Part shown: in pieces, positions 8,378 through 64,000 of the stretch
How the letters are laid out: each line of letters starts with the position of its first letter
How positions within the stretch are numbered: position 1 is the first letter of the stretch
Origin: a virus
Virus record (IMG/VR): IMGVR_UViG_3300035193_000030
Location: 8,077 to 72,076 of that record
Length of the DNA stretch: 64,000 nucleotides
Direction: 5' to 3' (one strand)
Translations under genes and position numbers: made by a program
The notes under the pieces: model-generated
Database searches by the model: none
What the model was told of the DNA's origin: nothing
Seen by the model: only the letters and a program-made list of their open reading frames with translations

Positions 8378-9036
8378 AAAAACTGTTAATAAGTATATTA
8401 TTTATATATAGTATAATAGGATCATCTCAACTTATCTCAAGATATCCTATGTATATTCCTTATCGAGAATTTGATATATCTGATAAATTATACTTTGATA
8501 ATTTTGATTCATATGCATTAGGTTCTACATTAGATGGACAAGGTGGATGGGCATCTGTTTTTAATTCAATACAAGTTCACCCTTCTTATTATTCTTTTCG
8601 AGGACTTTCTTCCTATTCACTGCATTGGAAACCAGATAGTTTAACTGAAACTGATGATCAAGTAGCTGGAATAGATTTTGAAATATTACAAGCTACTGGG
8701 GCTGATGTTGGTATTGCATTAAGGGTTAACCCGGATAATGGGGGTACTGCATATGTTTATATGATAAATAGCACAACTACTTATTTCGGACGGTGGCTTG
8801 AAGGAAGTTATTTAAATTTAGCATCTGGGGGTCATTCAGAGACTACAGGTACCCTAAGTATGGAAGTTGAAGGAAATACTATTCGTTGTTATTTAAACGG
8901 GGAATTAAATACTGCCCTTACCGGAGGGACTGGTATTTTTACAAATACTGCTATTCCAACAGGTAAAGGTGTTGGAATTTATGTTTATCAGCTAGGGTAT
9001 GCTATTGGGGACAATTGGTATGCACATGATTTATAA
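8374..9036 (+). CDS. Signal-peptide protein with ConA-like/lectin beta-sandwich
   Basis: DNFDSY..G..LDGQGGW, GIALRV, LSMEVEGNTIRCYLNG, GVGIY, DNW pattern. Confidence 0.6.
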   Translation: MKKLLISILFIYSIIGSSQLISRYPMYIPYREFDISDKLYFDNFDSYALGSTLDGQGGWASVFNSIQVHPSYYSFRGLSSYSLHWKPDSLTETDDQVAGIDFEILQATGADVGIALRVNPDNGGTAYVYMINSTTTYFGRWLEGSYLNLASGGHSETTGTLSMEVEGNTIRCYLNGELNTALTGGTGIFTNTAIPTGKGVGIYVYQLGYAIGDNWYAHDL

Positions 9037-15653: not shown

Positions 15654-16793
15654 ATGCCAGATGCAATTGTTGATCTGATTTCCTCAAGTGGGAAAGAAGC
15701 AAGAGGAGAAATCGCTAATGGAATTGTTATGAGTGGGAGGTTAAATGCAGGAATGATGCGTCCATATTTAGCGGTTAACTCCAGGGGATTAATTGTTCCA
15801 TGTGTGACTGTTTTTAAAGGAGGGGATCCTAAGAACCCCAAAAATTATGTCACAAAACAAATACAAGCTAATGCCACTCTTCGTAGAGATGAGTGGAAAC
15901 AGTTAGATGATGCCATAATGGAAGTATCTCGTCAGCGTTTAGGAGGGATTGATGATTTAATTAGTAAAGGATTAACGTATAATCTCGGAAATGCGATGGG
16001 GACTACTGTGCTTGAATGGCATGACGTAGATGATCCTGGTGAGGCTGTACTTACAATGGATGGTGTTACTAGAGGGAAAAATGACAGGCCTAATTTCCAA
16101 CATAATTATTTACCAATTCCTATAATCCATTCTGATTATGAAATTAATGCAAGGGTTTTAGCTGCTTCACGGAATATGGGGAATCCATTGGATACTACAT
16201 TGGCTGAAAGAGCAGCAAGAAGGGTAAATGAAAAGTTGGAAGATATGTTATTTACAAATACTTCTTACAGTTTTGGTGAGAAAGATTCTCGTGAAGTAAA
16301 TACAATCTATAGTTATATTAATTTCCCAGATCGTAATACTGTTACATTAAGTACAAATTGGGATGATCTTGATTTTGATTCATCTACAGCCAATGGAGGA
16401 GGAACAATAGTAGAAAATGTAATGGATATGAAACAAGCGTCTATAGATGATTACCATTATGGACCTTGGATGTTATACATTCCTACAAATTATGAAACAA
16501 CATTGGATAAAGACTATGATCGAACTACTCCAGGTACGACAATTCGTGAAAGGATTATGAAAATTGATGGTATTACTGGAATTAAGGTGATAGATCGTTT
16601 ACCTGCTGATAATGTATTATTAGTACAGATGACTAGCGATGTTGTTCGTTTAGTTCGTGGAATGGGCTTAACAAATATTGAATGGCAAGAAGAAGGAAGA
16701 TTTGTTAGTAAATATAAAGTTCTTACTATACAAGTCCCACAGATTCGTTCTGATCAGAATAAAAGATGTGGTATTGTTCATCTTGCAGCTTAA
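15654..16793 (+). CDS. Major capsid protein (HK97 fold, encapsulin/linocin-like type)
   Basis: ATLRRDEWKQLD, LPIPIIHSDY, GPWMLYIP motifs; size and position; strong SD. Confidence 0.85.
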   Translation: MPDAIVDLISSSGKEARGEIANGIVMSGRLNAGMMRPYLAVNSRGLIVPCVTVFKGGDPKNPKNYVTKQIQANATLRRDEWKQLDDAIMEVSRQRLGGIDDLISKGLTYNLGNAMGTTVLEWHDVDDPGEAVLTMDGVTRGKNDRPNFQHNYLPIPIIHSDYEINARVLAASRNMGNPLDTTLAERAARRVNEKLEDMLFTNTSYSFGEKDSREVNTIYSYINFPDRNTVTLSTNWDDLDFDSSTANGGGTIVENVMDMKQASIDDYHYGPWMLYIPTNYETTLDKDYDRTTPGTTIRERIMKIDGITGIKVIDRLPADNVLLVQMTSDVVRLVRGMGLTNIEWQEEGRFVSKYKVLTIQVPQIRSDQNKRCGIVHLAA

Positions 16794-48345: not shown

Positions 48346-49845
48346 TTAAATATAAAAATTATTTTTTATTTTCTTCATATCCCCTTTATAAAAAATCAAT
48401 ATATTTTGATGTGATTTTCCAATTTTTCTTGATATTTTAAAAGTATTCCCTGTTCTTAAAAAAAGTGATCCAATAGGTGTTTGGTATACAATATCATTAT
48501 AAAAAACCATTCCATATCTTTTAAATATTTCTATCGTATCCCCTACGAAATTTCGCAATTCCCCCGTTTTTTTATCCCTAAAATTACTTACAACTACGCA
48601 AGCAAACCTATTTTCTTTTAATTTGTTAATAGCTTTTTGTAAAATCCGACCATACATAAATATAAAACGTTCATATGTCATATTACTAATATCTTCTTTT
48701 AAATCACTATATTTTTCCATATTACCATACGGGGGGCACGTAAAAATAAAATCTGATTCTGGTGCTTTTTTTAATGTTTTATAAGAGTCACCACATACCC
48801 AAATTAAAAATTGTATGCTTTTGTCTTTATTTACATGATCATTCCATTTTAAAATATCATATTTTTCATGATCAATTTCACAATATAAGTCATGGTCATA
48901 TATCCCATCTTTTATATACTTAATTATTTTATCTGTTTGCACATTTCCAAATAAAAATTGTAAACTTTGCTTGTGTGTTTCATAAATAGGCAATTTTCCT
49001 TCTTTAACTTTATAACACTTTAATAACCTATATCTATTTCGTACAATTAACGTATCATTGTTATTTATTGTAAATGGGCTAATTATACATCCAAATGGTT
49101 TATTGTTATTATCATGTAATGAACATAAGTTATCATTTCTCTTAAAAGGGCATTTATTATTTTCATTAGGTGTAAGTAAATTATCAACTATACCCCCCCC
49201 TAATTTAATTATTTTCTCTTGTTCAGTTAAATATATTGGAACGATTACCCCCTTATTTTTATCACTACTTTCACAACATTTTGCAAAACATATATTTTTT
49301 ATAAAATTCTCTGTACACGGATGAAACATTCGTTTTAGATAGGCAGGGCTTATTTTTATCTTTTTTTTGGCGGTGAGCCTGTTTTTAAATATTTCTTGTG
49401 CATTGTCATAATTAGCTTGAACTTGTTCCCCCCTTAACTCACCACCCCAATAACTATAACCCATACTTTTTGCAACTACCCCCCTTACTGAACCCCCAGC
49501 AAACGGGTCTAATATAACCCCATTGGCAATACAAAACCAAGAATACATTAATTCACACAGTACGGGGTCAAATACTGATGTACTATTATTAATCCAAACA
49601 TCAGACCCTCCTGTATACCCTTTATTTGTAATTCTTCCATCTGCATCTCTTCTTAATAAATTCCCTTTCCTTCCCCTTTCACTTTTTATACCTAAATTTA
49701 ACCATTGTCGTTTCCTGTCCAACCAAATTTTATCAAACCCACGTAATACAGAAAAAGGGGGGAATATAAATTTTCCTGATAACCCTATTTTTGTTAATTC
49801 TTTTACAGTAATGCCTAAGTTATTATTTAATTCTAATTTTTTCAT
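48346..49845 (-). CDS. N4/N6 DNA methyltransferase with an inserted YkgJ/CxxCxxCC-like Cys-cluster domain
   Basis: TSVFDPVLCE, DPFAGGSVRG (motif I), FTCPPY (motif IV), separated by C..C.AKCC...CPF....LCS.H....P..C...PF. Confidence 0.8.
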   Translation of the reverse strand: MKKLELNNNLGITVKELTKIGLSGKFIFPPFSVLRGFDKIWLDRKRQWLNLGIKSERGRKGNLLRRDADGRITNKGYTGGSDVWINNSTSVFDPVLCELMYSWFCIANGVILDPFAGGSVRGVVAKSMGYSYWGGELRGEQVQANYDNAQEIFKNRLTAKKKIKISPAYLKRMFHPCTENFIKNICFAKCCESSDKNKGVIVPIYLTEQEKIIKLGGGIVDNLLTPNENNKCPFKRNDNLCSLHDNNNKPFGCIISPFTINNNDTLIVRNRYRLLKCYKVKEGKLPIYETHKQSLQFLFGNVQTDKIIKYIKDGIYDHDLYCEIDHEKYDILKWNDHVNKDKSIQFLIWVCGDSYKTLKKAPESDFIFTCPPYGNMEKYSDLKEDISNMTYERFIFMYGRILQKAINKLKENRFACVVVSNFRDKKTGELRNFVGDTIEIFKRYGMVFYNDIVYQTPIGSLFLRTGNTFKISRKIGKSHQNILIFYKGDMKKIKNNFYI

Positions 49846-51883: not shown

Positions 51884-51902
51884 AATTTATAAATTCACGA
51901 AA

Positions 51903-51934
51903 CAAATGTATAAAAAATATTTTAAACTACCAAA
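51903..51934 (-). promoter_or_regulatory. Bacteroidota-type promoter
   Basis: TTTG-N20-TACATTTG on the minus strand, matching the -33/-7 consensus. Confidence 0.7.
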
Positions 51935-53465
51935 AACTACCAATAAATGGGCGTCCACACCGAAGGTTTTGCAATACATGAATCTGATTCCGTATATTAA
52001 AATCCCCTTCTCGAATTACAATTTCATTTATTCTCATTATCCCAATTTCTTTTTCTCGCCCGTGTGCATCTTGATTTAATCCATACATTGCTGTAACGTG
52101 CCCGTATTTTCTTTTATCTTCACTAAAATTAGTCATTCTTAACGTATCCTTTGCATAACTTTCCGCATCAGCTTGTGTTGCAGTTAAGATTAGACAATGT
52201 TTTTCCTGACCTAATCCTCTCAATTGCTTCCATATATGGTTTTGTTTATGTCTTTCCTCTTTATAACTATTATCTTCTAATAAATCAGCATAATCTATTA
52301 TAATCACATCAGGAACAAAATTATCTTGTTTTTCCCAAATTCCTAAAATTGCTCTAATTTCATTGACACCTAAAGAACCATTAACGTGAGTAGAAAGACG
52401 AAAGGATCGTTTATTCTTAATAAAAAACTTTTCTATTGCTTCTTTTGCTTCATCTTCGGTTAAAGGCTCTTTTATTTTTATTTTCTTAATAAAAGGTGTT
52501 CCCCAAGGATTTTTATTAAATTCCTTGCAATTAAAACAATTCTTATAATCTTTATTATTTTTATAAACTTCTTTCAATTCTTTCATTGTAATCTTATAAC
52601 GGTAATTTTCATCCTTATTACGAAATAAACCGAAAGAACATTCACGTTCTTCCTTATCACAATTATCCAATTGATTATGTATACAATCTATTACAGGAAT
52701 ATAAAACTCCCCTGTATATTTTTCATTATCTGACTTTCCTTTCAATGAAATGCAAATTCTTTTTAATTGTTGGTGTTCAGTCATATCACCTGCCTGGAAA
52801 AAAGCGACCTTCCTTTTTTGTGTACATGCCTTCTTAGCACATTCAAGTAACCACCAGGTTTTTCCTCTTTTTTCAGGGGCTAAAAACGCTACAAATCCAT
52901 CCCTTACAAATTGATCATTCCAAAAACGTCCTAATTCTTTTGGGAATTGTATTAATACCTCAGTTGATTTATTAAATACCTGCCCTATCTTATTCATCAC
53001 ATTTTCTTTATCTTCAAAATTAATACAATTCCCCATTTCTTTTGATAATGGACGATACCCTGATGCCATATTTTCTGCTTCATAAAGTAAACCTTGTTCG
53101 GCTAACCCTTTTATTTTGTCAGAAAAACGAATTAAATTTCTTTCATTAAAGAATTGTAATGCTTTATCCGTATAATATTCTACATTAAAATCATCATTTA
53201 CATATTCTTCTGACAAGCCAGGTAATATATCTTCTTCTATTTCTTGTATTATTTCTTTTTGCAAGCCTTTACCTGCCTTTGCGTAAAGTATAGATTCAAT
53301 TTCTCTCCCAGGAGCTTTATTGTATTTATTAAAATAATCTAAACACCAACTAGCTAATCTTTTTGCAATACTACTTTCAAATAATGCAACATCCCATTTA
53401 CCTTTTATACGTTGATTAAATTCTGTGGAAACTATTAATCCAATTACTATCTTTCGTTCTATCAT
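51927..53465 (-). CDS. DnaB-like replicative helicase with Cys-rich insertion
   Basis: APEKRGKT, IIIDYADLL, TATQA, SEDKRK. Confidence 0.85.
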   Translation of the reverse strand: MIERKIVIGLIVSTEFNQRIKGKWDVALFESSIAKRLASWCLDYFNKYNKAPGREIESILYAKAGKGLQKEIIQEIEEDILPGLSEEYVNDDFNVEYYTDKALQFFNERNLIRFSDKIKGLAEQGLLYEAENMASGYRPLSKEMGNCINFEDKENVMNKIGQVFNKSTEVLIQFPKELGRFWNDQFVRDGFVAFLAPEKRGKTWWLLECAKKACTQKRKVAFFQAGDMTEHQQLKRICISLKGKSDNEKYTGEFYIPVIDCIHNQLDNCDKEERECSFGLFRNKDENYRYKITMKELKEVYKNNKDYKNCFNCKEFNKNPWGTPFIKKIKIKEPLTEDEAKEAIEKFFIKNKRSFRLSTHVNGSLGVNEIRAILGIWEKQDNFVPDVIIIDYADLLEDNSYKEERHKQNHIWKQLRGLGQEKHCLILTATQADAESYAKDTLRMTNFSEDKRKYGHVTAMYGLNQDAHGREKEIGIMRINEIVIREGDFNIRNQIHVLQNLRCGRPFIGSFW

Positions 53466-54262
53466 ATTGCTAATGGTAATTTATTTAATATCTTCATACT
53501 AACATGTGTATAAATTTCAGTTGTTTTGCTTGAGGAATGCCCTGCAAGTTTCTGAATTATTCTTAAATCCACTCCCTGATCAGTCAAATTTGTAAAACAT
53601 GAATGTCTAAGAAGATGAAAATGATATTCTTCTCCCAAATATCGTTTAACTATTTTATTACAACTTCCGGCAGAATATTTTAAACAATTTTGCCCATTAA
53701 ACAAATATTTCTTTGGTTTATATTGTTTGTAATATTTTCTTAATAATTCCAATAAAGTAGGGGTTAATGGGACTATTCTATCTTTGTTACCCTTCGCTTG
53801 TCTTACATTTATTATCATTCTTTTACTATCAACATCCGTAATTTTTAAATTTATTACCTCTGATACTCTTAATCCTACTGAATAAGATAATGATATTATG
53901 GCTTTATGTTTTAAATTTTTTATTTGTTTTATTGTATTTAATAAATAATCTTTATTAATAACCTGTGGCAAATGTTTTTCTTTCCTTGGGCGTTTAAAAT
54001 CAATTTTGTTATATTTTTTACCCAAAACTTTTTCCCACCCAAATTTTATGGCATTTATGATTTGATTTTGCTGTGAAATGGAAGAATAATCAAAATTTAA
54101 TAAATAATTTTGTATATCATTGGCGTTTAAATGTTGAGGATATTTATTAAATGACTGTAAAAATTTTTCAAAATAATGTCTATATATTTCAATTGTTCTT
54201 TCTGAATAATTGAAATATTTTAATTTTTGAATATAAATTTTTAAAAAATTAGTATGTAACAT
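53462..54262 (-). CDS. Integron-integrase-like tyrosine recombinase
   Basis: YSERTI..Y and QIINAIKF N-domain; YSVGLRVSE, KGNKDRIVP, HLLRHS, IQKLAGHSSSKTTEIYTHV; lacks the IntI-specific insertion. Confidence 0.9.
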   Translation of the reverse strand: MLHTNFLKIYIQKLKYFNYSERTIEIYRHYFEKFLQSFNKYPQHLNANDIQNYLLNFDYSSISQQNQIINAIKFGWEKVLGKKYNKIDFKRPRKEKHLPQVINKDYLLNTIKQIKNLKHKAIISLSYSVGLRVSEVINLKITDVDSKRMIINVRQAKGNKDRIVPLTPTLLELLRKYYKQYKPKKYLFNGQNCLKYSAGSCNKIVKRYLGEEYHFHLLRHSCFTNLTDQGVDLRIIQKLAGHSSSKTTEIYTHVSMKILNKLPLAI

Positions 54263-54289
54263 ATTTAGTACAAATTAATTAGCATTACA

Positions 54290-54317
54290 ATTTTATATAT
54301 AATAGTTCAAGTCAATT
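54290..54317 (+). other. attI-like insertion site
   Basis: tatatataata-G/TTCAAGTCAATT. The 13-mer is the exact reverse complement of 54658-54670, and no hairpin arm precedes it. Confidence 0.7.
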
Positions 54318-54630
54318 ACGCTTCGCTTAGAAATTGTTTAAGTGTGCAATCACATTTATTTGAACCAGCAATACTTCCATTAAAGTTATAATACGGAACT
54401 TGCCCAGTATCTCCACACTTAAAACATTTCACACTACGCTTGACGGTAGCTTCATTTAAAATTTTTATAGCTTTTTTTAAGTTACGAATATTCCTTCCAT
54501 TCTCAATTACATGTTTGTGCCCTATTTCTTTTACAATTCTCTTATCAGACTTAGCCCATTCTTTAGAATCAGAATATTCTTTTTCTAATTCTTTAATTTT
54601 TTGTTCTAATAATTCTATTACATATTTCAT
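54316..54630 (-). CDS. Cassette 1 cargo, hypothetical protein with Cys motif
   Basis: CFKCGDTG...CDC. Confidence 0.65.
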   Translation of the reverse strand: MKYVIELLEQKIKELEKEYSDSKEWAKSDKRIVKEIGHKHVIENGRNIRNLKKAIKILNEATVKRSVKCFKCGDTGQVPYYNFNGSIAGSNKCDCTLKQFLSEA

Positions 54631-54663
54631 AATTAAAATTTTAAATTCTCACTACCTAATTGA

Positions 54664-54815
54664 CTTGAACGGGCGCGGTGTGTCCGCTCTTATCATTCTT
54701 TTCCCGAGCGAAGCGAACGTGCCTCGAACAAGGTGTAAACTGAATTTAATACTTTTCTCTTGCTCGTTCCTCACAAGCGGTATTAAACTACAGTTTCACA
54801 CCGCGCCCGTTACCA
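54664..54815 (+). repeat. attC-like site 1
   Basis: AAC-GGGCGCGGTGTG (54668-54682) ... CACACCGCGCCC-GTT (54797-54811), perfect 15-bp inverted repeat. Confidence 0.85.
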
Positions 54816-54829
54816 ACAATAAAAAATTA

Positions 54830-55207
54830 TTATCGGTGTAAGTAAACATTAGTTCTTTCGGTGTCGCCGTCTCGCTCGAACCATCCAAAATAAACCTTTT
54901 TCTTCCTGCCTAGTACGTGTGGTGCTATCCAATCAATAAATGTATTTAATTCTTCGCTCTCGTAGTTAATATCGGTATGTATGGCAAGTTCCCATCCATT
55001 TTTTACCTCTTTTACATAAGGTTTATCATACCCACCATACCCCATTGTTGCAAACATCTGGTACCATCTTTGTGTGTCAAAAAATGGATTCTTCTCGTAT
55101 GGGGCATCGTGGTTATTTTCAATACATTTATTTAGCCACTCTATCAAACTTTCGGGAGTATTCCTACCAAGGTTTATTTTTAACTTTATCTCAGTTATGT
55201 AGCTCAT
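54830..55207 (-). CDS. Cassette 2 cargo, hypothetical protein
   Basis: Body bounded by GTTACCAAC (54809) and GTTGGTAAC (55219-55227). Confidence 0.75.
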   Translation of the reverse strand: MSYITEIKLKINLGRNTPESLIEWLNKCIENNHDAPYEKNPFFDTQRWYQMFATMGYGGYDKPYVKEVKNGWELAIHTDINYESEELNTFIDWIAPHVLGRKKKVYFGWFERDGDTERTNVYLHR

Positions 55208-55220
55208 AATTTTTAAAAGT

Positions 55221-55348
55221 TGGTAACAATGTACATAGGTAATTTGCCGTGTTTCATTGTTACAGTTGTTTGTAATTCAAATTTATCTCTTTGTTGTTAC
55301 TTAATGCGTCAAGCAGGGGCAAACATACCCATGTACTCAACGTTATGG
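55221..55348 (+). repeat. attC-like site 2
   Basis: AAC-aatGTACATAGGTAATTTGCC ... GGCAAACATACCCATGTAC-tcaac-GTT. Confidence 0.85.
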
Positions 55349-55603
55349 CAAATGCGAGAGCATTATTTTACAAAGTTCATCTGCATCTAATCCATAAACG
55401 CTTATTAGTTCACTACTGTAGTATTCGTTTTTATTATATATCTGGTAAAACTTATCTTTCTCATAGTTATAGTCAATATTATCTAATGTAGGCGAAGCAC
55501 TTACCATAACACTAAATAAATTCCATAACTCAGTTTGTGCCTGTTCGGGGGTCAGTTCTCCGTTTGCAACTTTTGTAAGTAATTCTAACTGTTGTTCTTT
55601 CAT
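55343..55603 (-). CDS. Cassette 3 cargo; starts in the attC loop and stops in the GTTA core
   Basis: Body GTTATGGCAAATG (55342) / CACTTACCATAAC (55498-55510); ORF crosses the AAC junction. Confidence 0.7.
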   Translation of the reverse strand: MKEQQLELLTKVANGELTPEQAQTELWNLFSVMVSASPTLDNIDYNYEKDKFYQIYNKNEYYSSELISVYGLDADELCKIMLSHLP

Positions 55604-55634
55604 ATCGTTACGGTATTTATTATTTTCGTTGTAA
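55504..55634 (+). repeat. attC-like site 3
   Basis: AAC-actAAATAAATTCCATAAC ... GTTACGGTATTTATT-attttc-GTT. Confidence 0.7.
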
Positions 55635-55645
55635 TTAAAACGAAA

Positions 55646-55986
55646 CTACAACACATTATATAAATAATGCGCTGTAGCTCGTATCAACTTTATTCCTCTC
55701 CCACGCACCATTCTAAAGTTTCAATCTTATAACCATATAAAGCCAAATGCCTTGTTACCATATCAGCATACGGTGGCAACATAGGTACTTTACCGCTTTC
55801 AATATCTTTCCATTGGTCATCCCAAGTCTTTTTTTCAGCCTTTAGTTCGGCAATTTTGTCTTTAACTTCTTGTTCGCTTTTCATTTTATTAAGTAATGCC
55901 CACGCTCGCAAACGTGGAGGTTTATATCTCGTATGTAATGTAGTGCGTATGCGAGGGCGCACTATTCATATAATTATTAGTTAGCA
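55646..55986 (+). repeat. attC-like site 4 with an approximately 280-bp ORF-containing loop
   Basis: AAC-acATTATATAAATAATGCGC ... GCGCACTATTCATATAAT-tatta-GTT. Confidence 0.75.
55690..55962 (-). CDS. Hypothetical protein within the attC loop (start probably MKSEQEV)
   Basis: MKSEQEVKDKIAELK...IETLEWCVGEE. Confidence 0.6.
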   Translation of the reverse strand: MRPRIRTTLHTRYKPPRLRAWALLNKMKSEQEVKDKIAELKAEKKTWDDQWKDIESGKVPMLPPYADMVTRHLALYGYKIETLEWCVGEE

Positions 55987-55993
55987 ACAAACA

Positions 55994-56446
55994 CTACCAA
56001 TTCATTCTATCAGCTGTATTGCGGAAAATATCGCAAAGCTGTTCGGATATTTTAAATCGCTCCTTATTAATTTCTATTGATTTTCGAATGTCGCCATCTG
56101 CGTGCCTTTCTGTTGCGGCTTTCCAATCAAACAACATCTCCACCAAATCAAACAAATCAAATCCATTCACACCATTTTCATAATGCTCTGGGTGATGACT
56201 ATTATTTGCATAGTGGTGGTCAAGTGCTACTTTCAAGCCCTTTAAAAACTCTTTGTATTCTTCACTTCCATAAGTACATCCTTTAAGTTTGGGTGTGTAC
56301 TCATCAAACAATTCCTTTTCAGGGCTTTCAAGTTTGGAACTGTCGTGCTTTCCCGCCCTAATTAATAACTCGCTTACTGCTGTAATTAAAAGTTCATTAA
56401 CTCTTTTTATGTGCTGTAGAGTATCAGCTTTGCTATCGTACTGCAT
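55994..56446 (-). CDS. Cassette cargo, HD-like DUF5662-family protein
   Basis: HI..V, HDSSK, HHY..NSHHPEHY, EML.DW.AA..RH; body GTTAGCAAC (55980) / GTTGCTAAC (56480-56488). Confidence 0.75.
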   Translation of the reverse strand: MQYDSKADTLQHIKRVNELLITAVSELLIRAGKHDSSKLESPEKELFDEYTPKLKGCTYGSEEYKEFLKGLKVALDHHYANNSHHPEHYENGVNGFDLFDLVEMLFDWKAATERHADGDIRKSIEINKERFKISEQLCDIFRNTADRMNW

Positions 56447-56746
56447 ATAATTAAATTTTGTAATTAATAATCCGTGTCAGTTGCTAACAAGTTACATATT
56501 GCAAAAGCCATGAAACATTGTAGCACTTAATCGGTCGATTGCAGTTGGCTTTCGACAACATGTAACCGTCCCGTTATTCGCAATTCCCCCTTCCCTGCAA
56601 TCCATCTAGGAATTGCGAATAATGAACCGCGAATATATCCCTCCCACAACCGAAACTTACCTTTCCAACTCAAAGAACGCGCGTCTGGAACAGACGAATA
56701 ACTATGAATATAGATAAGTTTCATTGGCTATGAATTGGGATAAAAA

Positions 56747-56929
56747 TTATTCCATATCACGCTCAATAATCGGGCTATTATTAATCAAGTCGCTAATAAT
56801 TTCAGCGTGAAACTTTTCATCATTATCCTGCATGGCGTAAAGCCCTCGCTCTAAAACCTTGTGAAATGCTACTACCACATCTGACGATTCATATTCCTTT
56901 GATGTCTCTAAATAAGCTGTAAATTCCAT
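56747..56929 (-). CDS. Cassette cargo, hypothetical protein
   Basis: AT-rich leader and protein-like composition. Confidence 0.55.
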   Translation of the reverse strand: MEFTAYLETSKEYESSDVVVAFHKVLERGLYAMQDNDEKFHAEIISDLINNSPIIERDME

Positions 56930-57000
56930 AATTTTTATTTTAGTTTAATAATTAAAGTCGTATATCATAACCAATTAAACCTTCCCATATTCGCGGTTCA

Positions 57001-57264
57001 TTAGAATGCATTAAAGCGGTTGTTAATTATGTTGTCGTAATCTTCATCTCGCTTTGCCTCCCCGCCTATTTTATCATAAATCCATTTTTCATCTATGCCC
57101 TTAAATATCAAACACGGAGCACCTTCTTTATCTGGGTATCTGTGATGTCTGCTTTTTTTAACAGATGTAACTAAATCTATATTTATAGGGTTATTTTCAT
57201 ATCCCTCAAAATAACTCCCAACGCTCGTATTACATTTTATAAATGTTGCCATAAAATAACGCAC
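57001..57264 (-). CDS. Cassette cargo, hypothetical protein (start probably MATFIK)
   Basis: PINIDLV motif; stop lies in the degenerate ATTAG core. Confidence 0.65.
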   Translation of the reverse strand: MRYFMATFIKCNTSVGSYFEGYENNPINIDLVTSVKKSRHHRYPDKEGAPCLIFKGIDEKWIYDKIGGEAKRDEDYDNIINNRFNAF

Positions 57265-57390
57265 CCTAACAATAAATATAAAACAGTGGGTGTTAGGGTG
57301 TCTAATTAGCCCGATCTGCTTAAGTTACATTAATTCAATTTTCAAAGTTAGTGGGTAAAATCCCACCGTTTCATATTCGGAACGTTGTGC
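57264..57390 (+). repeat. attC-like site
   Basis: CCCTAAC-aataAATATAAAACAGTGGG ... CCCACCGTTTCATATT-cggaac-GTTGTGC. Confidence 0.85.
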
Positions 57391-57391
57391 T

Positions 57392-57658
57392 TCATTTGCC
57401 AACCCGCTCGAATAAATCACAAGTCAATCCATCACCGAAGCACTCGTCTTTATCACTATTTGCATCATTTCCACATCTACCAAAATCAGATGGTTCAAGT
57501 TCATCTTCGTACTCATCTTGGTAGCTTGTAAACCACTTACACCATTGGCAGGTTTTCTTCCATTCTGTTTCTTCTCTTATGTTTGTTTCCATCTTTTTTA
57601 GTTTGCATTGCTCACCCGCATTGGTTTTTTCAAAACCATTAAGATAAATACTTTTCAT
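57392..57658 (-). CDS. Small Cys-rich protein (start probably METNIREE)
   Basis: CQWCKWF...GRC...TCDLFE. Confidence 0.6.
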   Translation of the reverse strand: MKSIYLNGFEKTNAGEQCKLKKMETNIREETEWKKTCQWCKWFTSYQDEYEDELEPSDFGRCGNDANSDKDECFGDGLTCDLFERVGK

Positions 57659-58625
57659 ATCTCATTTCAGCTTTATTCCTATCCCAAACACTATCCCATA
57701 AAGGATTCCAGTTTACATAATCATATATTTCATATATTTCATCAAAATCATTTGGGAAGTCTTTATAATCACAAATTATATTTGTTGCTATTTTTACACC
57801 GATAGCTTTTAAATGCTGTGCCATACTTATAGTATAAAAAGTTGCTTCAACATTCCTATGCATGTCTCTTAAAACATCTGCATTATTACTTTGTATCGGG
57901 CAATGGAATATTTCTAACACATTGCATTTTGCAGCGTTAAGTAATTCACCTTTGCACTGTATGGCAACCTGTGGCTCAATATTTCTTATAGATATTTTCT
58001 TATTTTTTTCGATTGCTAAATTACACCAATCTTTTATTTGCTGTACTGTCGGACTATCTGCAATTAAAACAACATCGTTAAACTTCATGAACTCATTTAC
58101 AAGCCTATTGTCAATATCATATTTCTCGTGCTTTCCTCTGGTCATTTTTATAGTACAATAAGTGCAATTGAATGGACATCCTTTCCCTATTCGTAATGGA
58201 TATTTATTCCTGAAAATATTCCCTTGTTCAAGTTCCTTGTCAGTTTCCTTGAAGTCTTTTATCCAAAATGGTTTTGCAAATTCAACAAGTTTTTTATTGT
58301 TAATTTGTTGATACGTACATCGCATTTGTTCCAATCTTCCAATATCTTCAGGAAATGCTATATCGTTTCGTTGTGCCAAACAGCCAGATATAAACACATT
58401 TTTATTTGGATATTTGTCTCTAAACTTTTCAGCAGTATTGAAGTCGTTCAATATTGCAAGGTCAGTAACTTGGCATGATAAAACAATTATATTCTCAGCT
58501 TCTTTTTCATCGGTTGTAACTAATTCTATATTTGCATTAGCCCAACTTAAAGCATCAGCCCATACACTCATACAGGCAGTGCAAATAAAATAATGTTTCC
58601 CGTTTAAATTTTTAATATTTTCCAT
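57639..58625 (-). CDS. MiaB/MtaB-like radical SAM methylthiotransferase lacking TRAM
   Basis: N-domain Cys triad (TAC, LSCQV, SGCLA), GCPFNCTYC...TRG, HCPIQS....L..M.R, TNII; start taken at MENIK. Confidence 0.75.
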   Translation of the reverse strand: MENIKNLNGKHYFICTACMSVWADALSWANANIELVTTDEKEAENIIVLSCQVTDLAILNDFNTAEKFRDKYPNKNVFISGCLAQRNDIAFPEDIGRLEQMRCTYQQINNKKLVEFAKPFWIKDFKETDKELEQGNIFRNKYPLRIGKGCPFNCTYCTIKMTRGKHEKYDIDNRLVNEFMKFNDVVLIADSPTVQQIKDWCNLAIEKNKKISIRNIEPQVAIQCKGELLNAAKCNVLEIFHCPIQSNNADVLRDMHRNVEATFYTISMAQHLKAIGVKIATNIICDYKDFPNDFDEIYEIYDYVNWNPLWDSVWDRNKAEMRYEKYLS

Positions 58626-58705
58626 CCCTATTTTTTCTTTTTTTACGTTAGTACTTCGATTCATCGTTTCTGCGTATTTGTCAGCACATTTCATACCTCC
58701 GTCCG

Positions 58706-58873
58706 TTAGGCAACATAAAAATGCCACCTACCCTCATCGTCTTCTTGGTATCCCATTGCCATGAATATACATTGGTAATTATTTCTACCATTATACTGGT
58801 TCATTAAATCCAGCGCACCCCTCATTATATTAACTTTCTTTGTTGCTGGAAGTGTTTCAAACTTATTTATCAT
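58706..58873 (-). CDS. 55-aa cassette cargo (not in the ORF track)
   Basis: MINKFETLPATKKVNIMRGALDLMNQYNGR...WHFYVA; stop within GTTAGGC at 58705. Confidence 0.55.
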   Translation of the reverse strand: MINKFETLPATKKVNIMRGALDLMNQYNGRNNYQCIFMAMGYQEDDEGRWHFYVA

Positions 58874-58959
58874 CTTTCATTTTGTTGTAATTTTAAAATT
58901 TATATCTCGTATTTAAAACGACAACGAGAGTTTACCGTCAAACGTTAGCAACAATAAGG

Positions 58960-59196
58960 TCAATCCTTAATCTTGCTGTGTTCATTCCAATATTCTTCGA
59001 AGTATTCTTTGCTGCATAGTACACCCCAACTCATTCCACAAGGAGTTGTGTATATATCCATACAACTTGCCAATTTTTTAGCAACCCATTCTTGTACTTC
59101 TTCTCTATCTCTTGGTTTTTTCCTTTTCCCAAACCATTCATGTTCGTGAATTAAAATTGTCAAGTTGTAAAGTGTATTTATTTGTTCTTGCGTCAT
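58960..59196 (-). CDS. Cassette cargo, hypothetical protein
   Basis: Body GTTAGCAAC (58944) / GTTGCTAAA (59208-59216). Confidence 0.7.
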   Translation of the reverse strand: MTQEQINTLYNLTILIHEHEWFGKRKKPRDREEVQEWVAKKLASCMDIYTTPCGMSWGVLCSKEYFEEYWNEHSKIKD

Positions 59197-59209
59197 AATA
59201 AATTACTGT

Positions 59210-59303
59210 TGCTAAAAAGGTATATACGTAATACCCTATTAAGGTTTGTACTAATTTTTAAAGTTTCTGCATTGGGTACTACGTATATACCCAATCGTAG
59301 ATC
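59210..59303 (+). repeat. attC-like site with both cores mutated
   Basis: AAA-aaGGTATATACGTAATACCC ... GGGTACTACGTATATACC-caatc-GT(-)AGATCG. Confidence 0.75.
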
Positions 59304-59548
59304 GAATTAAGTTCTAAATAATGCAATGGAACTTCTCGAAAGTCTGTTCCTTCTACACCATTCCAAATTGCTTTCTGTTCTATTAATGCTCTTGGTTCTT
59401 TATATATTTTGCCAGTTTTGCCACACTCAAATATCGGATAGTAAGCAATTTTCCATTTTCCTTTGCCATCCATTTTGTATGTGTTTCCAATTTTGTGAGC
59501 TTTCCATAAAGGATGCTCTAATGATTTTTGTAATTCCATGTTTATCAA
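59279..59548 (-). CDS. Cassette cargo, hypothetical protein
   Basis: Body GTAGATCGAATTAA (59297) / TTAACTCGCTCTAAC (59549-59563). Confidence 0.65.
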   Translation of the reverse strand: MINMELQKSLEHPLWKAHKIGNTYKMDGKGKWKIAYYPIFECGKTGKIYKEPRALIEQKAIWNGVEGTDFREVPLHYLELNSIYDWVYT

Positions 59549-59967
59549 TTAACTCGCTCTAACACAAATTAGGCACAATAAATTACTGCACTTTCGGTTC
59601 TATTTTAACCCTACCGTCTGTTAATGCTTCAAATAAATTGTTAAGTTCTTCACATAGCCTAGTTACGTGAGCCGAACAAAGCATATAGGCAATATTTTGG
59701 GATAAGCTTTCTCTTAATACCATAAAAATTATTGCTTTATCAGCAGGTATATTATACACCATACCAATGTACAGAACCATCCTACGGCATAACTAAACCT
59801 TGATGGTTGTTCATTACTAAATATTGCAAGTAGAATACTTAAAATAGCGCATGCTATTACGATGTAACACGTTATTTCCATAATTTTTATTGCTTTAAAT
59901 GTTAATAATTAAATTTATATTTCAATTTTACTTTGTATTCCCAAATCCTCCCCATATTCTCTGGTTC

Positions 59968-60191
59968 GTTATAAAAACAATTAAAGCGGAATCCCTAATT
60001 TTTGTTCTTATTGTGGTCTTGTAGCAGATAAGGTACTCACTTGCGTTTTCTTGAATCTGCCCTCACACGCTAAATTTAGACTGAATGGGCTTTATCTATG
60101 GTTTTACGTCCAGTTCCGTCAACCAACCTAGTAGGCGTTCATTACGCGCGCTTGCCTACGCACCATTGTTTCCGCTTTAAAAGTTTATAAC
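59968..60191. ncRNA. ORF-less cassette with GC-rich multi-hairpin sequence (candidate structured RNA)
   Basis: Bounded by GTTATAAAAACAATTAAAGCGGAA / TTCCGCTTTAAAAGTTTATAAC; internal GCAGAT/ATCTGC and GTAGGC/GCCTAC stems. Confidence 0.4.
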
Positions 60192-60427
60192 ACAATACTA
60201 CGTATCGGGTAAAAATCAACTTTATCCGTTTGCGAAGAATAAAATTAACTATATTTTTCTAAGCATGTTTTTTAATTGTTCAACTGCCATATAATACGTT
60301 ACCCCATAAAACGCACCATCTTTTTCATAGTTTTCAAGCGCTCTTAAAGCCGTTTCCATTGCTTCTTTAATTTTTTTATTCATATCCATAATTTTTCAAA
60401 TTCCGTAAAATTACATTCCCAGGTCCG

Positions 60428-60589
60428 TTACTCCTTTTTTGTTTCTACATTTAAAATTTCTATTTTATACCTTGCATACTGCTCCATTAATGTGCATCCT
60501 ATATTAAGTAAGTTCTTCGATCGTAATTTAGCTCTAATTCCAAATTTATCACTTGGACTAACATTAATCAAATATTCTTTAGCATTCAT
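60428..60589 (-). CDS. 53-aa cassette cargo (not in the ORF track)
   Basis: MNAKEYL...LMEQYA...; stop within gtccGTTA. Confidence 0.5.
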   Translation of the reverse strand: MNAKEYLINVSPSDKFGIRAKLRSKNLLNIGCTLMEQYARYKIEILNVETKKE

Positions 60590-60607
60590 ATCTTTTAATT
60601 TGATAAG

Positions 60608-61216
60608 TTATTCCCATTTAATATTTTTCTCCCAATCATAAGCTTTTGCCATTGCTTCTATGTCTTGCCTCATTTCTTTCTCTCCCAATTCAGTTAGCTT
60701 TGCATGCCATCTTTTTATCATTTCAGCATCTATATAATCAGTCGGCAACATTTCGCTAACATGCGGTAATAATTCATGTGCTTGTGGTAATCTCGAAGGT
60801 TCCACCAAGGCACTTTTAGCATAATAATAAGCCTTTACTACTTCTCTATCAAACGCAGTTTCTTTAGTGCTACAGTTATTAATTCTATGACTGAGTCGTA
60901 AAGCGTTTTCTATTGTTTTAAACTTCCATTTTGGTATTGTTATCATTTCTTCTGCCATTGAACAATATTTTTTTATCACATCTTGAACCACCTGTTCAAT
61001 ACCTTCTATTTCTAATAATTTAATTTGGCCTCCACCAACAAATTCAGCATTATACATTTCAGCATGTCCATCATCATATCCTCTTTGATAGACTTCTTTG
61101 ATTAAATTAACCAAAATACTGTTCATAATATCAGATATATGTAATTTTTTATCTGTGTTATTAAGTTCTTTATTCTTATTATTTTTATTCATATATTTTG
61201 AATTTTTGTGTTTCAA
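60608..61216 (-). CDS. Mosaic hypothetical protein reading through degenerate attC remnants
   Basis: KLHISDIMNS and LLPHVSEMLP are translations of AAC-junction sequences (TTCGCTAAC at 60752-60760). Confidence 0.55.
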   Translation of the reverse strand: MKHKNSKYMNKNNKNKELNNTDKKLHISDIMNSILVNLIKEVYQRGYDDGHAEMYNAEFVGGGQIKLLEIEGIEQVVQDVIKKYCSMAEEMITIPKWKFKTIENALRLSHRINNCSTKETAFDREVVKAYYYAKSALVEPSRLPQAHELLPHVSEMLPTDYIDAEMIKRWHAKLTELGEKEMRQDIEAMAKAYDWEKNIKWE

Positions 61217-61262
61217 TTTAATTTAGTGATAGGTACTTGCCATACTTACTACCATTTAGCGG

Positions 61263-61589
61263 TCATTGTCTATCATACAGTAATTTAACTTTAATACTAA
61301 TCATAAGTTCATCAATAGCTTTATCCTCTGTTTCTGCTTCAACCACCATTCCGGGTATATCTTTCAAATAAGCTAACCAAACATTATCATGCCTTTCGGT
61401 AACCAATTCAGGCAACGAACCTCTAACATCAAATATAGCACAGTTGGCGTTAGCGGTTTGCCTCCTTTTTCTACATTTATCACAAATTCTAATAGGTGTC
61501 ATTATATCTGATATTTTTACATAATAAAATGATGTTATTGTATAAACTTCGCAATCATAACAATTACTAAAAAAATTACATTTTCCCAT
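61263..61589 (-). CDS. Cassette cargo with C-terminal HicB-like domain
   Basis: WLAYLKDIPGMVVEAETEDKAIDEL; crosses the CTCTAAC junction at 61421-61427; start taken at MGKCNF. Confidence 0.55.
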   Translation of the reverse strand: MGKCNFFSNCYDCEVYTITSFYYVKISDIMTPIRICDKCRKRRQTANANCAIFDVRGSLPELVTERHDNVWLAYLKDIPGMVVEAETEDKAIDELMISIKVKLLYDRQ

Positions 61590-61602
61590 ATTCTCTGGCT
61601 CG

Positions 61603-61899
61603 TTAGCAATCAGTTTGCCTATCAAATCTTTTTGCGCAAAATGGGCAACAACTATATGCTTTATTATTTTCATAAATCTTACAAGCAGGGCAAACCGCCA
61701 CCCCATCGCTCAACTCCTCTATAGGTAATTTGCCGTTCTCTGAATTAGCCTCATTCGCTTGCTTTAGTATTTTTAAACATATTTTAAGATCTAAAACACG
61801 TTTACTATATTCCGTTCTCAATACGTCATCCTTTGTGCTTTTATAGTTATCTTTAAGGATATCTATTTCTGCTTCCAATAATTCAATTGTATATTTCAA
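61603..61899 (-). CDS. Cassette cargo with Zn-ribbon; starts in the attC loop
   Basis: CPAC...CPFC; stop within GTTAGC at 61602. Confidence 0.6.
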   Translation of the reverse strand: MKYTIELLEAEIDILKDNYKSTKDDVLRTEYSKRVLDLKICLKILKQANEANSENGKLPIEELSDGVAVCPACKIYENNKAYSCCPFCAKRFDRQTDC

Positions 61900-61997
61900 T
61901 GTTGCTCACTATTTAGTTATTATTAAATTCTGTTTTTCAATTCTAATCCGGTACAGTGCGTTGGGTAAAACATACCCATACCACCAACTCGTTATCG
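61708..61997 (+). repeat. Distal attC-like site, same family as site 2
   Basis: Shares ATAGGTAATTTGCCGT and AAACATACCCAT arms with 55221-55348; ends GTTATCG at 61991. Confidence 0.7.
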
Positions 61998-62049
61998 CTA
62001 ATTGCCGCACAGGTTAAAATGGCTTATATATTTTTTAATTGTCTTTTTT

Positions 62050-62856
62050 TCAAGTAGATTGTTTCACATAATCAGGAATATTATTATAAATTTCTTGTTC
62101 GTTATTAATATCATCTTTAAACATATGCAATTTCATTTCTTTGGGATCATCCAGCCAACGATATTGATTTAACCATGTGGAAGCAAGTGGAATAAACTTT
62201 GAGACAGACCAACGTTCTGTTTTCTTTTGTAATATAATTGCTTTAACCACCTGCCTCCAAGTAGGACAATATTTCTTTTTTGATGGAGAATTACATAAAT
62301 TAATCCAAGCTTTTAAAGCACTCCCTTCTTTATCTTTTCGTGGGTATAATTTCCAAAAGTTTTTAAAGTCATTTTCGACAATATTGTATTTTAATACTTT
62401 GTTATTATTTACTTTGTTATTATTTATATTATATGCCCTACCAAAATCCGTAGGACTAGACCTACCAAAATCCGTAGGACTAGACCTACCAAAATCCGTA
62501 GGTCTAGTGTTTATGCGGGTTAGCAAATGTTCAACATGGATAAAATAATGCTCTTTTGCTGGTGTACCAACCATTTTAGTGGAAATTATATTTTCATTGA
62601 TTAATTGTTTTTTGCACTTACGTAATTTGTGTAAAGATAGCCCAATTTGTTTTGTTTGGTTCTTATGGAGAATATAAAACCAACCTTCTTTTAATCGGTT
62701 GTGTTCTTTAAAATAAAAATATTTGTCTATTAAATTTGATAAAAAAAGGGCAGCTTCCACTCCAAAATAATTAATTAATGTTTTATTGACAATCAGATAG
62801 TTTGTTGTATTAAGTGATTGTAATAATAAATCTTCTTTAATAATATAGTTTTTCAT
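62050..62856 (-). CDS. Replication initiator (lambda O/DnaD-like organisation)
   Basis: N-terminal wHTH, iteron-coded linker, FKNFWKLYPRK...A..AW and PLASTWLNQ.RW.D. Confidence 0.8.
   Translation of the reverse strand: MKNYIIKEDLLLQSLNTTNYLIVNKTLINYFGVEAALFLSNLIDKYFYFKEHNRLKEGWFYILHKNQTKQIGLSLHKLRKCKKQLINENIISTKMVGTPAKEHYFIHVEHLLTRINTRPTDFGRSSPTDFGRSSPTDFGRAYNINNNKVNNNKVLKYNIVENDFKNFWKLYPRKDKEGSALKAWINLCNSPSKKKYCPTWRQVVKAIILQKKTERWSVSKFIPLASTWLNQYRWLDDPKEMKLHMFKDDINNEQEIYNNIPDYVKQST
62437..62508. repeat. Three 24-bp iterons (putative origin)
   Basis: cctaccaaaatccgtagg-actaga twice, plus a third copy ending tctagt; each quasi-palindromic, beside an AT-rich tract. Confidence 0.75.
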
Positions 62857-63783: not shown

Positions 63784-64000
63784 TTAAGTAGACCAAGACC
63801 AAGACCCAGACCTAGACCAAGACCTAGACCAAGACCAAGACCTAGACCAAGACCTAAACCCAGACCCAGACCAAGACCAAGACCCAGACCTAGACCCAGA
63901 CCTAGACCAAGACCAAGACCCAGACCTAGACCAAGACCTAGACCAAGACCAAGACCTAGACCAAGACCAAGACCTAGACCTAGACCCAGACTTAGTCCCT
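63784..64000 (-). CDS. 3' end of a Ser-X (SR/SW/SG) dipeptide repeat protein
   Basis: Hexamer array TCT-(A/T/G)GG in one frame, ending TCT ACT TAA. Confidence 0.65.
   Translation of the reverse strand, partial: GTKSGSRSRSWSWSRSWSWSRSWSRSGSWSWSRSGSRSGSWSWSGSGFRSWSRSWSWSRSWSRSGSWSWST

Follow-up and report, generated by a model that had tools for sequence, protein, structure and literature searches.

Integrons are defined by a domain specific to their integrase, IntI, which standard detection tools require, and so defined they leave Bacteroidota and phages almost empty; integron-type gene capture is hardly known from either. The IntI-specific domain contacts flipped-out bases of the folded attC site. 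Open reading frames (ORFs) of integron cassettes commonly belong to no known family, and integrons with a reverse-oriented integrase are known as the Spirochaetes/Treponema type. A different kind of gene module is found on Acinetobacter plasmids, where the host XerC/XerD act on 28-bp duplex dif-like sites of alternating orientation. According to the available text of the sources, the IntI-specific domain is treated as defining and necessary for integron recombination, with reverse-orientation integrons also mentioned (10.1101/2022.02.06.479319), IntegronFinder 2.0 reports in Bacteroidetes only empty integrons and a single complete one (PMC9024848), and one Tenacibaculum genome was reported integron-free by the same tool (PMC10013915). 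Here, a region of IMG/VR virus record IMGVR_UViG_3300035193_000030 is compared with these systems. The stretch analysed, referred to as the window, comprises 64,000 nucleotides (nt), bases 8077-72076 of the 72,076-base record, which is rated complete. Its array of hairpin sites and small ORFs beside a tyrosine recombinase gene is very probably an integron-like gene-cassette platform of a tailed phage, probably of Bacteroidota.

A platform consisting of a recombinase, an attI-like site and attC-like cassettes was the original prediction, made from the letters of the window, and it is supported by the parts themselves, by their conservation and by phage variants that differ by whole units at a core triplet. 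Sequence and comparison further establish the covariation of the stems, the single orientation of the sites, the complementarity of each unit to its own end and the turnover of content.

A family of hairpin sites with covarying stems

The hairpin pattern does not recur literally in the window. A strict scan (AAC, a stem of at least 8 nt, GTT, at most 1 mismatch) returned only the hairpin at 54668-54811 and three likely chance matches, and a gapped stem score, followed by a covariance model, was required. The gapped AAC-stem-GTT scan gave 8 matches in the window, 6 of them between 54.6 and 60.2 kb, and in most related loci such elements are concentrated upstream of the recombinase.

The covariance model, R1, was trained on 42 sites from ten loci of other phage contigs, none from the window. 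In the 42-site alignment AAC and GTT are invariant, and the consensus fold has 20 pairs, 15 of which show compensatory changes. Paired cells amount to 93.5%, a share partly built in by the stem-complementarity filter through which the training sites were picked, against 66.9% after column shuffling (none of 500 shuffles attained 93.5%) and 32-49% with slid partners. The compensatory pattern and the later independent R1 matches are not built in by this filter. On the gene-sense strand a G.T pair next to the core is kept in 40 of 42 sites and a second G.T position in 25 of 42, and these positions would be A.C mismatches on the opposite strand. Unpaired bases, mostly 3-4 nt and spanning up to seven alignment columns, also form a run on the 5' arm. 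The G.T asymmetry would serve no purpose in duplex DNA and therefore suggests recognition of a folded single strand. Imperfect inverted repeats with AAC/GTT cores and structure conserved over sequence, as in classical attC sites, are thus all present.

Run over the whole window with filters off, R1 gave 5 matches at E<=1e-4 (its E-values being rough), all on the minus (gene) strand and all within 55211-59312. Below E 0.01 there is one further row, 59219-59291 on the plus strand (E 0.0099), in which one of the five sites is seen again through its palindromic sequence; the rest of the window has no match under that threshold. In 27 viral loci (504,525 nt) the model gave 100 matches at E<=1e-3, of which 42 are the training sites themselves, with 99 of the 100 on the recombinase strand and 92 of the 100 upstream of the recombinase. 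The attC-like sites of the original prediction are borne out by these covarying stems and the five window matches, the new covariance model it had proposed having been built from related loci. MITE-like or IS200/IS605-type hairpin elements were considered and rejected: there is no HUH transposase, the sites are co-oriented, and the variable units include genes.

The prediction had also stated that the AAC end of a unit matches the start of its own cassette rather than the GTT closing its own hairpin. In 21 viral loci and the window, the 8 nt after each GTT were compared with the 8 nt before the next AAC, at least 6 matching positions being counted as complementary. This was the case in 34 of 88 adjacent pairs, against 2 of 133 comparisons of a hairpin's two flanks with each other and 23 of 1006 non-cognate pairs, in agreement with the claim. 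The bacterial arrays described below behave likewise (17 of 22 adjacent pairs, against 1 of 26 hairpin flanks and 2 of 126 non-cognate pairs).

Unit-sized differences among cultured phages

The Polaribacter phages Freya and Danklef carry a recombinase 35% identical to that of the window, and R1, trained without them, matches their arrays at 69.7, 36 and 27 bits. Seven genomes out of the ten Freya isolates were compared. Their backbone is collinear and 99.9-100% identical, and they differ by 0 to ~4.9 kb, or 0-12 extra small genes, directly upstream of the recombinase. All seven junctions lie immediately after a CAAC core and five of the seven join the attI-like site. Four isolates have the core joined straight to attI-like sequence, one shows an internal core-to-core loss, and one has a different unit, with a core at one boundary and core plus attI at the other. 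Two of the junction cores are exactly the AAC positions of R1 matches. Furthermore, Danklef_1 and Freya_10 have in common a 1.17-kb unit (99.6% identity) that is bounded by AAC at either end and stands between different neighbours in the two phages. Overall, 9 of 10 junctions in the cultured phages fall exactly at an AAC core. Breakpoints unrelated to GTT sites, which the original prediction had named as a finding that would speak against it, are thus not the pattern seen.

Two side observations concern Danklef_1 (L200). Its recombinase gene (7959-8480) has lost its N-terminal part and adjoins, past an AAC core, a 40-nt segment present in duplicate, and two of its cassette genes (2405-2791 and 4009-4566) are annotated as HNH endonuclease and adenine-specific DNA methylase, kinds of accessory gene reported in phage attC clusters.

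The attI-like site and the polarity of the units

In gene sense, the last cassette of the array ends in YTAAC and is followed by a conserved TA-rich TAYTATATATAA-like motif, with the ATG of the recombinase 40-90 nt further on. This motif, predicted as an attI-like site, abuts the last core both in the window and in 19 of 20 related loci displayed; 18 copies stand beside an intact recombinase gene and one (L029) beside a deleted one, and L013 is the locus that departs. To judge from its position and from the Freya junctions, a primary site adjoining the integrase gene, as in classical integrons, is present here. The attI-like site of phage arrays is not a hairpin. Two loci hold a second attI-like copy together with the first recombinase codons, 5-6 kb downstream of the recombinase (L003, 8681-8776 versus 13621-13716; L019, 9903-9993 versus 15805-15895). 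R1 sites lie between the copies (L003 at 11620, 12251 and 13032; L019 at 14715, 15035 and 15495), which suggests a second array or a past duplication. In L029 (9944-10123) the array is kept and the recombinase lost, only the attI-like site and ~25 codons (residues 3-27) remaining before the helicase gene.

In the window and the phage loci, ORFs and R1 sites share the recombinase strand and each hairpin lies upstream of its ORF; the classical order of an ORF followed by its own attC, transcribed away from attI, is not found there. In gene sense, exchange at the 5'-side AAC of the hairpin mirrors classical exchange at the 3'-side G/TT, so that recombinase, attI and sites are arranged as in a classical integron. 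It is the phage ORFs that are inverted relative to it: the mobile unit is a hairpin followed by its ORF, with genes running toward the recombinase and in line with the phage operon.

The array of the window

The features of the array and of the two backbone genes that enclose it are as follows, lengths of proteins being given in amino acids (aa).

51927-53465, minus strand: DnaB-like replicative helicase (Pfam DnaB_C, phrog_19), a conserved backbone gene directly downstream of the recombinase.
53462-54262, minus strand: tyrosine recombinase of 266 aa (Pfam Phage_integrase and SAM_4), Xer-like, with no IntI-specific extra domain.
54263-54307, minus strand: attI-like site; in gene sense the last AAC core (plus-strand GTT at 54305-54307), the TA-rich motif, then the recombinase ATG.
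54305-54670, minus strand: cassette 1, with ORF 54316-54630 (104 aa, no family) and ends forming a 14-nt perfect inverted repeat.
54668-54811, minus strand: GC-rich hairpin site with AAC/GTT cores and 12-bp GC-rich stem arms.
54809-55227, minus strand: cassette 2, with ORF 54830-55207 (125 aa, phrog_4334, function unknown) and a 22-nt terminal inverted repeat at 86%.
55211-55358, minus strand: attC-like site (R1, 43.9 bits, E 2.4e-10).
55342-55510, minus strand: short cassette-like unit (166-bp unit) between two model sites, overlapping the mechanically called ORF 55343-55603.
55494-55644, minus strand: attC-like site (R1, 48.4 bits, E 1.1e-11).
55980-56488, minus strand: DUF5662 cassette, with ORF 55994-56446, bounded by a 9-nt exact inverted repeat.
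56472-56589, minus strand: attC-like site (R1, 25.4 bits, E 8.4e-5).
56620-57003, minus strand: inverted-repeat unit; a 17-nt perfect inverted repeat with internal AAC/GTT encloses ORF 56747-56929 (60 aa).
57254-57400, minus strand: attC-like site (R1, 69.4 bits, E 5.6e-18), the best match of the window.
57392-58873, minus strand: block of three ORFs between sites, including a radical-SAM MiaB/RimO-like protein (57639-58727).
58944-59216, minus strand: cassette with ORF 58960-59196 (78 aa); the end pair is seen in the sequence and its upper end lies in the R1 site 59200-59312.
59200-59312, minus strand: attC-like site (R1, 65.8 bits, E 6.7e-17) with a strong stem, the cores TAC and TTT replacing AAC and GTT.
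59297-59563, minus strand: cassette with ORF 59279-59548 (89 aa), ends matching 10/12, and a weak R1 match at 59547-59584 (9.6 bits).
59976-60185, no strand: non-coding element of uncertain nature, G+C-richer, with a 20-nt 85% inverted repeat and AAC/GTT ends.
60249-61899 (~1.7 kb), minus strand: five ORFs of small or medium size, closely spaced and lacking recognisable sites, either cassettes or backbone.
61966-62007, minus strand: distal array boundary, a half-site with an AAC core (plus-strand GTT at 61994-61996) followed by 5'-arm-like sequence.
62050-62856, minus strand: replication initiation protein (phrog_270), a conserved backbone gene upstream of the array.

The best-formed parts lie next to the recombinase. 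The ends of cassette 1 (54305-54318 and 54657-54670) are the only GTT-led exact pair of at least 14 nt in the whole 64-kb window. The arms of the adjoining hairpin (54668-54682 and 54797-54811) are complementary over all 15 nt, AAC and GTT included, and its DNA fold of -33.4 kcal/mol (z -5.9) was equalled by 0 of 200 shuffles. R1 does not match this hairpin in the whole-window run; it seems to be of another sequence type than the modelled family, with the same cores. The 166-bp unit matches at 8 of 10 end positions and both its ends coincide with core triplets of R1 sites; an ORF of 90 aa lies between R1 sites, next to this unit and the DUF5662 cassette. From comparison with a Freya_6 unit, in which an annotated ORF lies between hairpin arms, 56620-57003 is probably a site whose loop carries an ORF. 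Site 59200-59312, 80-88% identical to elements in L007, L009 and L020, shows non-standard core pairs in the model alignment and is probably a fossil. A partial R1 match (E 0.017) lies at 58837-58927, and the distal half-site gives a weak one (9.7 bits, E 4); in L004 the first full site stands at the matching place, after the homologous gene. In total there are six well-supported hairpins, the attI-like site, the inverted repeat at 56620-57003 and two to three degenerate or partial sites, so that "about a dozen" attC-like cassettes, as first claimed, is a generous count.

Most cassette ORFs belong to no family. The protein at 57639-58727 matches Pfam Radical_SAM and UPF0004, and TIGR00089 at 84.6 bits, below its cut-off. 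Over the whole window, Rfam at gathering score gave 0 matches and ARAGORN found no tRNA, and megablast of 51900-62100 against a phage collection gave no match. The element at 59976-60185 has an unremarkable fold (z -1.5) and no Rfam or tRNA match. A second stretch, 56490-56720, is likewise a non-coding sequence between cassettes, G+C-richer than its AT-rich surroundings and without Rfam or tRNA match; the mechanical 65-aa ORF 56527-56724 within it looks non-coding. A motif of ~20 nt at 56984, 59951 and 61585 (plus strand) was considered as a hairpin arm and rejected, being absent from other loci. Each copy adjoins a core triplet and reads, in gene sense, as a conserved leader and an ATG. A frame of 108 codons, in phase with ORF 61263-61706, starts at one copy, and frames of 7 and 17 codons start at the other two; these seem, from their sequence, to be the start of a small gene and two truncated remnants of the same small gene family.

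Of the cassette ends originally listed as complementary pairs, several proved longer or better placed than described. The pair 54305/54658 is the 14-nt perfect repeat of cassette 1, the AAC...GTT hairpin beside it has the 15-nt perfect arms given above, and 54809/55219 extends to 22 nt at 86%. The pair 55980/56480 is exact over 9 nt with an R1 site at 56472-56589, the 8/10 pair 55342/55498 is supported by site 55494-55644, which puts its GTT exactly there, and 58944/59208 and 59297/59549 are real and flank the strong site with degenerate cores. By contrast, 55628/55644, listed as a cassette, falls within the R1 site 55494-55644, and the weaker pairs 61255/61427 and 61602/61714 found no support in the exact-pair, 8/10-pair or R1 tests. 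The pair 59968/60170 is a real 20-nt inverted repeat at 85%, bounding a non-coding element with a fold of z -1.5 rather than a cassette. About three of the ten listed pairs are thus due to chance or misassigned.

It had also been proposed that the reading would fall if the paired ends were no better than background. GTT/AAC end pairs with 8/10 matches number 11 in the 7.8-kb region and 35 in the other 56 kb, an approximately twofold enrichment. The short pairs are therefore only modestly enriched and several weak ones could be chance; the significance of the window array comes from the R1 matches and the related arrays.

The recombinase

The recombinase ORF is full-length, with a SAM-like N-terminal domain and a catalytic domain. 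R132, K157, H216, R219, H242 and Y251, which are taken to be the tyrosine-recombinase catalytic set (R-K-H-R-H/W-Y), are invariant among 16 aligned homologs, and the enzyme is, to judge from its sequence, intact with a complete catalytic set. Among NCBIfam models it scores best with XerA_Arch ("site-specific tyrosine recombinase/integron integrase"), reaching 181.7 bits where the cut-off is 220. XerC and XerD follow at 135.4 (cut-off 335) and 134.9 (cut-off 330), so that none of the equivalog cut-offs of the Xer chromosome-dimer resolvases (XerA, XerC, XerD) is reached. The integron-integrase models TIGR02249 (139.9 bits, cut-off 265) and NF011946 (91.1 bits, cut-off 435) each match in two pieces. 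Among solved structures the best matches are the XerA entries 4a8e and 5hxy, and IntI4 (2a3v) aligns in two blocks, with 85 IntI residues where the recombinase has 37. The IntI-specific domain is therefore absent, and the description of the enzyme as IntI-like has to be replaced: it is Xer-like, the domain near patch III being missing by TIGR02249, NF011946 and 2a3v alike.

With E<=1e-30 reached by 7,445 of the 8,000 protein clusters scored, the recombinase family is very large. Source databases name the clusters XerD, integrase or tyrosine recombinase, and integron integrase in 0 of the 120 listed. A metagenome scan returned 365 relatives, none above 74% identity among the best 80 of the 365, and a protein search found none above 78%.

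The phage, its replication module and related loci

The window encodes a large terminase, a portal, a capsid-type protein, a tape measure, a family-A DNA polymerase and a DnaB-like helicase, and therefore belongs to a tailed phage; the prediction that the element is phage-borne rests safely on this set of structural and replication genes. From high to low coordinates, the minus-strand replication module consists of the replication initiator, ~7.7 kb of small ORFs, the tyrosine recombinase and the helicase, the recombinase gene end and the helicase gene start overlapping by 4 nt. The array thus sits between the initiator (62050-62856) and the recombinase and helicase (51927-54262), inside the replication operon as had been claimed.

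Related recombinases are encoded at 28 loci in the viral contigs scanned, with 50-70% identity at 18 of these. L002, L004, L011 and L029 share the helicase homolog after the recombinase and an initiator homolog ~5 kb upstream of it. Nineteen of the 25 ORFs queried belong to the window array, and none of these has a full-length homolog in the 28 loci; the sole exception, which also applies to the ORFs of 60249-61899, is an N-terminal 22-71-residue match of 60608-61216 in L007. With flanks conserved and array ORFs unshared, the segment between the flanks is therefore completely variable in content, as the comparison of cassettes at the same attI in related phages had been expected to reveal. In L004 the plan is particularly regular: behind each ORF stand TAAC, 70-150 nt of folded sequence and GTTA, and the bases before each AAC are complementary to those after the preceding GTT.

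Some observations outside the array concern its surroundings. The initiator gene contains three tandem copies of a 24-nt unit (97% matches, 62437-62507), which may be origin iterons; contig depth there is 78 versus 54 elsewhere, as a repeat would give. The hexamer AGACCA occurs in ~34 copies at 63790-63991, at the window edge, within an open frame running off the end. A 499-aa protein (48346-49845) combines an N-terminal ParB-like nuclease match with a DNA methyltransferase (phrog_12517, phrog_498).

Chromosomal arrays in Bacteroidota

Recombinase homologs of 41-64% identity occur in the Bacteroidota Tenacibaculum soleae, Flavobacterium urumqiense and Winogradskyella poriferorum, and further ones in many metagenome-assembled genomes of Flavobacteriales and Bacteroidales. 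R1 finds 58 sites in the bacterial loci, in two layouts. In type A, which is phage-like, 20 of the 58 lie on the recombinase strand, all upstream of the recombinase; in type B, the other 38 lie on the opposite strand, all downstream. Type B begins with the recombinase, followed right after its stop codon by a short hairpin and AATT-GTTA and then by ORFs on the recombinase strand. Each ORF is followed by a site whose strand is opposite to the phage layout, and the classical order of ORF then site is found. Examples of type B include L055, L083, L088, L072 and L051, among other genome contigs, and G001 and G003. The cassettes of types A and B are of opposite ORF/site chirality. Whole-genome R1 searches of three genomes, in each of which 150 candidates were scored, gave at least 61 sites (Tenacibaculum soleae), at least 12, and at least 66 (Winogradskyella poriferorum). 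By these counts of predicted sites, the same system forms large arrays in Flavobacteriaceae chromosomes.

Proposed mechanism and alternative explanations

In the mechanism proposed, the dedicated Xer-like recombinase (53462-54262) would recombine the attI-like site near its own start codon with attC-like sites, and these among themselves. In each attC-like site, AAC and GTT cores would enclose a covarying stem of ~15-20 bp with a variable loop. Exchange would take place at the AAC on the 5' side of each hairpin, on the gene-sense strand, and the mobile unit would therefore be hairpin, GTT, ORF or ORFs, and AAC, new units entering next to the recombinase gene. All units are co-oriented with the replication operon, and it is therefore proposed that they are expressed by read-through transcription. 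It is inferred from sequence that the recombinase catalyses the exchange; the sites would act as folded single strands, the units would exist as circles, and the array of the window phage may still be active.

Several points weigh against the integron-like reading. The recombinase is without a domain called necessary for integron recombination. The evidence from Freya and Danklef rests on a recombinase only 35% identical, and viral contig, metagenome and protein searches found no near-identical relative of the window phage, so that turnover in its own lineage is deduced from distant relatives. One of the ten boundaries follows a GTT: Danklef_1 and Freya_10 are identical through the first hairpin and diverge past its GTT, at the distal end, where homologous exchange within similar hairpins or a second exchange point may have acted. 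The stem filter on the training sites and the rough E-values of R1 also have to be counted. The array of the window is partly degenerate, with mutated cores at one strong site, no sites in 60249-61899 and weak pairs near background. A single sequencing run contains the region, probably from the source sample, and its assembled contigs show a flat depth of ~54; among these contigs there are no informative joints, others matching at the sites only partially, over 27-35 nt. Recombination in the window phage is thus deduced from sequence.

These last points would fit a system that is real in the family and a frozen relic in the window phage, its recombinase having another role or none and its cassettes being fixed accessory genes. 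Mutated triplets at one strong site, several weak or missing end pairs, the single form and flat depth of the sample and the arrays kept by related phages after loss of the recombinase (L029, residues 3-27; Danklef_1, truncated) agree with such a relic, which is nevertheless considered unlikely: the recombinase ORF is full-length with all its invariant catalytic positions, ends are perfect or nearly so at the attI-like site and in the two cassettes next to it, and contigs are unable to reveal rare variants. Exchange might instead occur between duplex core sites in the manner of Xer/dif, the hairpins being incidental, for example terminators or binding sites. This accords with a recombinase closest to XerA-type enzymes, without the IntI domain, and with an attI-like site that is not a hairpin. 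It appears improbable in view of stems that covary strongly while their sequence drifts, conserved strand-distinguishing G.T/A.C positions, an exchange point at the stem base and the lack of the T-run typical of terminators.

An ordinary lysogeny integrase, among unrelated repeats and genes varying by ordinary phage mosaicism, is the remaining alternative. In the available text of the report on Freya, Danklef and Ingeline, the isolators take the integrase to indicate that the phages may be temperate, and a term search of that report finds none of integron, cassette or variable region (PMC8776804). Early phage regions are, moreover, often mosaic. Such an integrase would leave unexplained the sites of one orientation beside the recombinase, the own-end complementarity, the conserved site abutting the last core, isolate differences exactly at cores and the dozens of sites in bacterial chromosomal arrays, and this explanation is regarded as very improbable.

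Wider interpretation and comparison with known systems

Beyond the platform of the window, a broader interpretation is put forward with somewhat more confidence than doubt. It holds that a second integron lineage exists, in which Xer-like recombinases without the IntI domain run hairpin-site cassette platforms in the chromosomes of Bacteroidota, the genomes of Tenacibaculum and Winogradskyella having dozens of sites each, and in Bacteroidota phages. In phages the cassettes would have flipped chirality, so that captured genes ride the early operon, and the system would be active on the scale of one algal bloom, to which the Freya isolates point. Virulent phages would thereby possess accessory genes, possibly for counter-defence, in a modular stock that can be traded among phages and perhaps with hosts. 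If this is true, hairpin-site cassette exchange does not depend on the IntI-specific domain, marine and sediment Bacteroidota and their phages hold a large stock of mobile cassettes that has escaped notice, and phages possess dedicated machinery for exchanging small accessory genes within an essential operon. Freya, Danklef and their Polaribacter hosts are in culture, which makes direct testing possible.

The original prediction had held that a phage version may be undescribed. This stands in part: integron parts in phages have already been reported (PMC9892861), and no description of this recombinase and site family was found in the literature searched, a supplementary list of 17 clusters belonging to that same report being one place that might include such phages. 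In its available text, Qi et al. (2023) describe attC-type sites and small cassette arrays in phages, including a Polaribacter phage, with methyltransferases among the cassette genes, as here. Their elements, found with IntegronFinder/HattCI, differ in being classical integrons or integrase-less clusters of 2-4 attC, with no phage-encoded Xer-like recombinase or attI in the text available (PMC9892861). The Polaribacter phage P12002L, which carries one of these clusters, was considered as a member of the present family, which is not evident; it has no annotated recombinase and one R1 match, outside the cluster.

Reverse-integrase integrons resemble the bacterial type B in having the recombinase on the cassette-ORF strand, upstream of the ORFs. 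They have a true IntI, and the phage type A, with its array upstream of the recombinase and ORFs running in, is another layout. The Acinetobacter Xer/dif modules share the movement of gene modules by Xer-type recombinases between short conserved sites, and are without a dedicated recombinase, hairpin sites or a primary site. Archaeal XerA and bacterial XerD are the best relatives in sequence and solved structure, and database sources name close homologs XerD. Unlike these resolvases, the present enzyme scores below the XerA cut-off (181.7 versus 220) and is phage-encoded beside its own site array, not a chromosomal dif.

The closest likeness is to integrons, especially the sedentary chromosomal ones. 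In both, a tyrosine recombinase adjoins a primary site, and the array beyond it holds short ORFs, mostly single and without known function; the sites between them are imperfect hairpins with AAC/GTT cores, and the end of a unit is complementary to its own start; exchange takes place at a core triplet, with gains and losses preferentially at the primary site. The differences lie in a recombinase without the IntI-specific domain and below the integron-integrase cut-offs, and in own-end complementarity of 7-12 nt, against ~4 in integrons. The strand marks here are conserved G.T/A.C positions and an asymmetric internal loop, in place of the classical flipped-out bases. The ORFs of phage arrays run toward the recombinase with the hairpin upstream of each, and the hosts are Bacteroidota. 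The system works like an integron, lacking the IntI domain by which integrons are defined and, in phages, the classical orientation of the ORFs.

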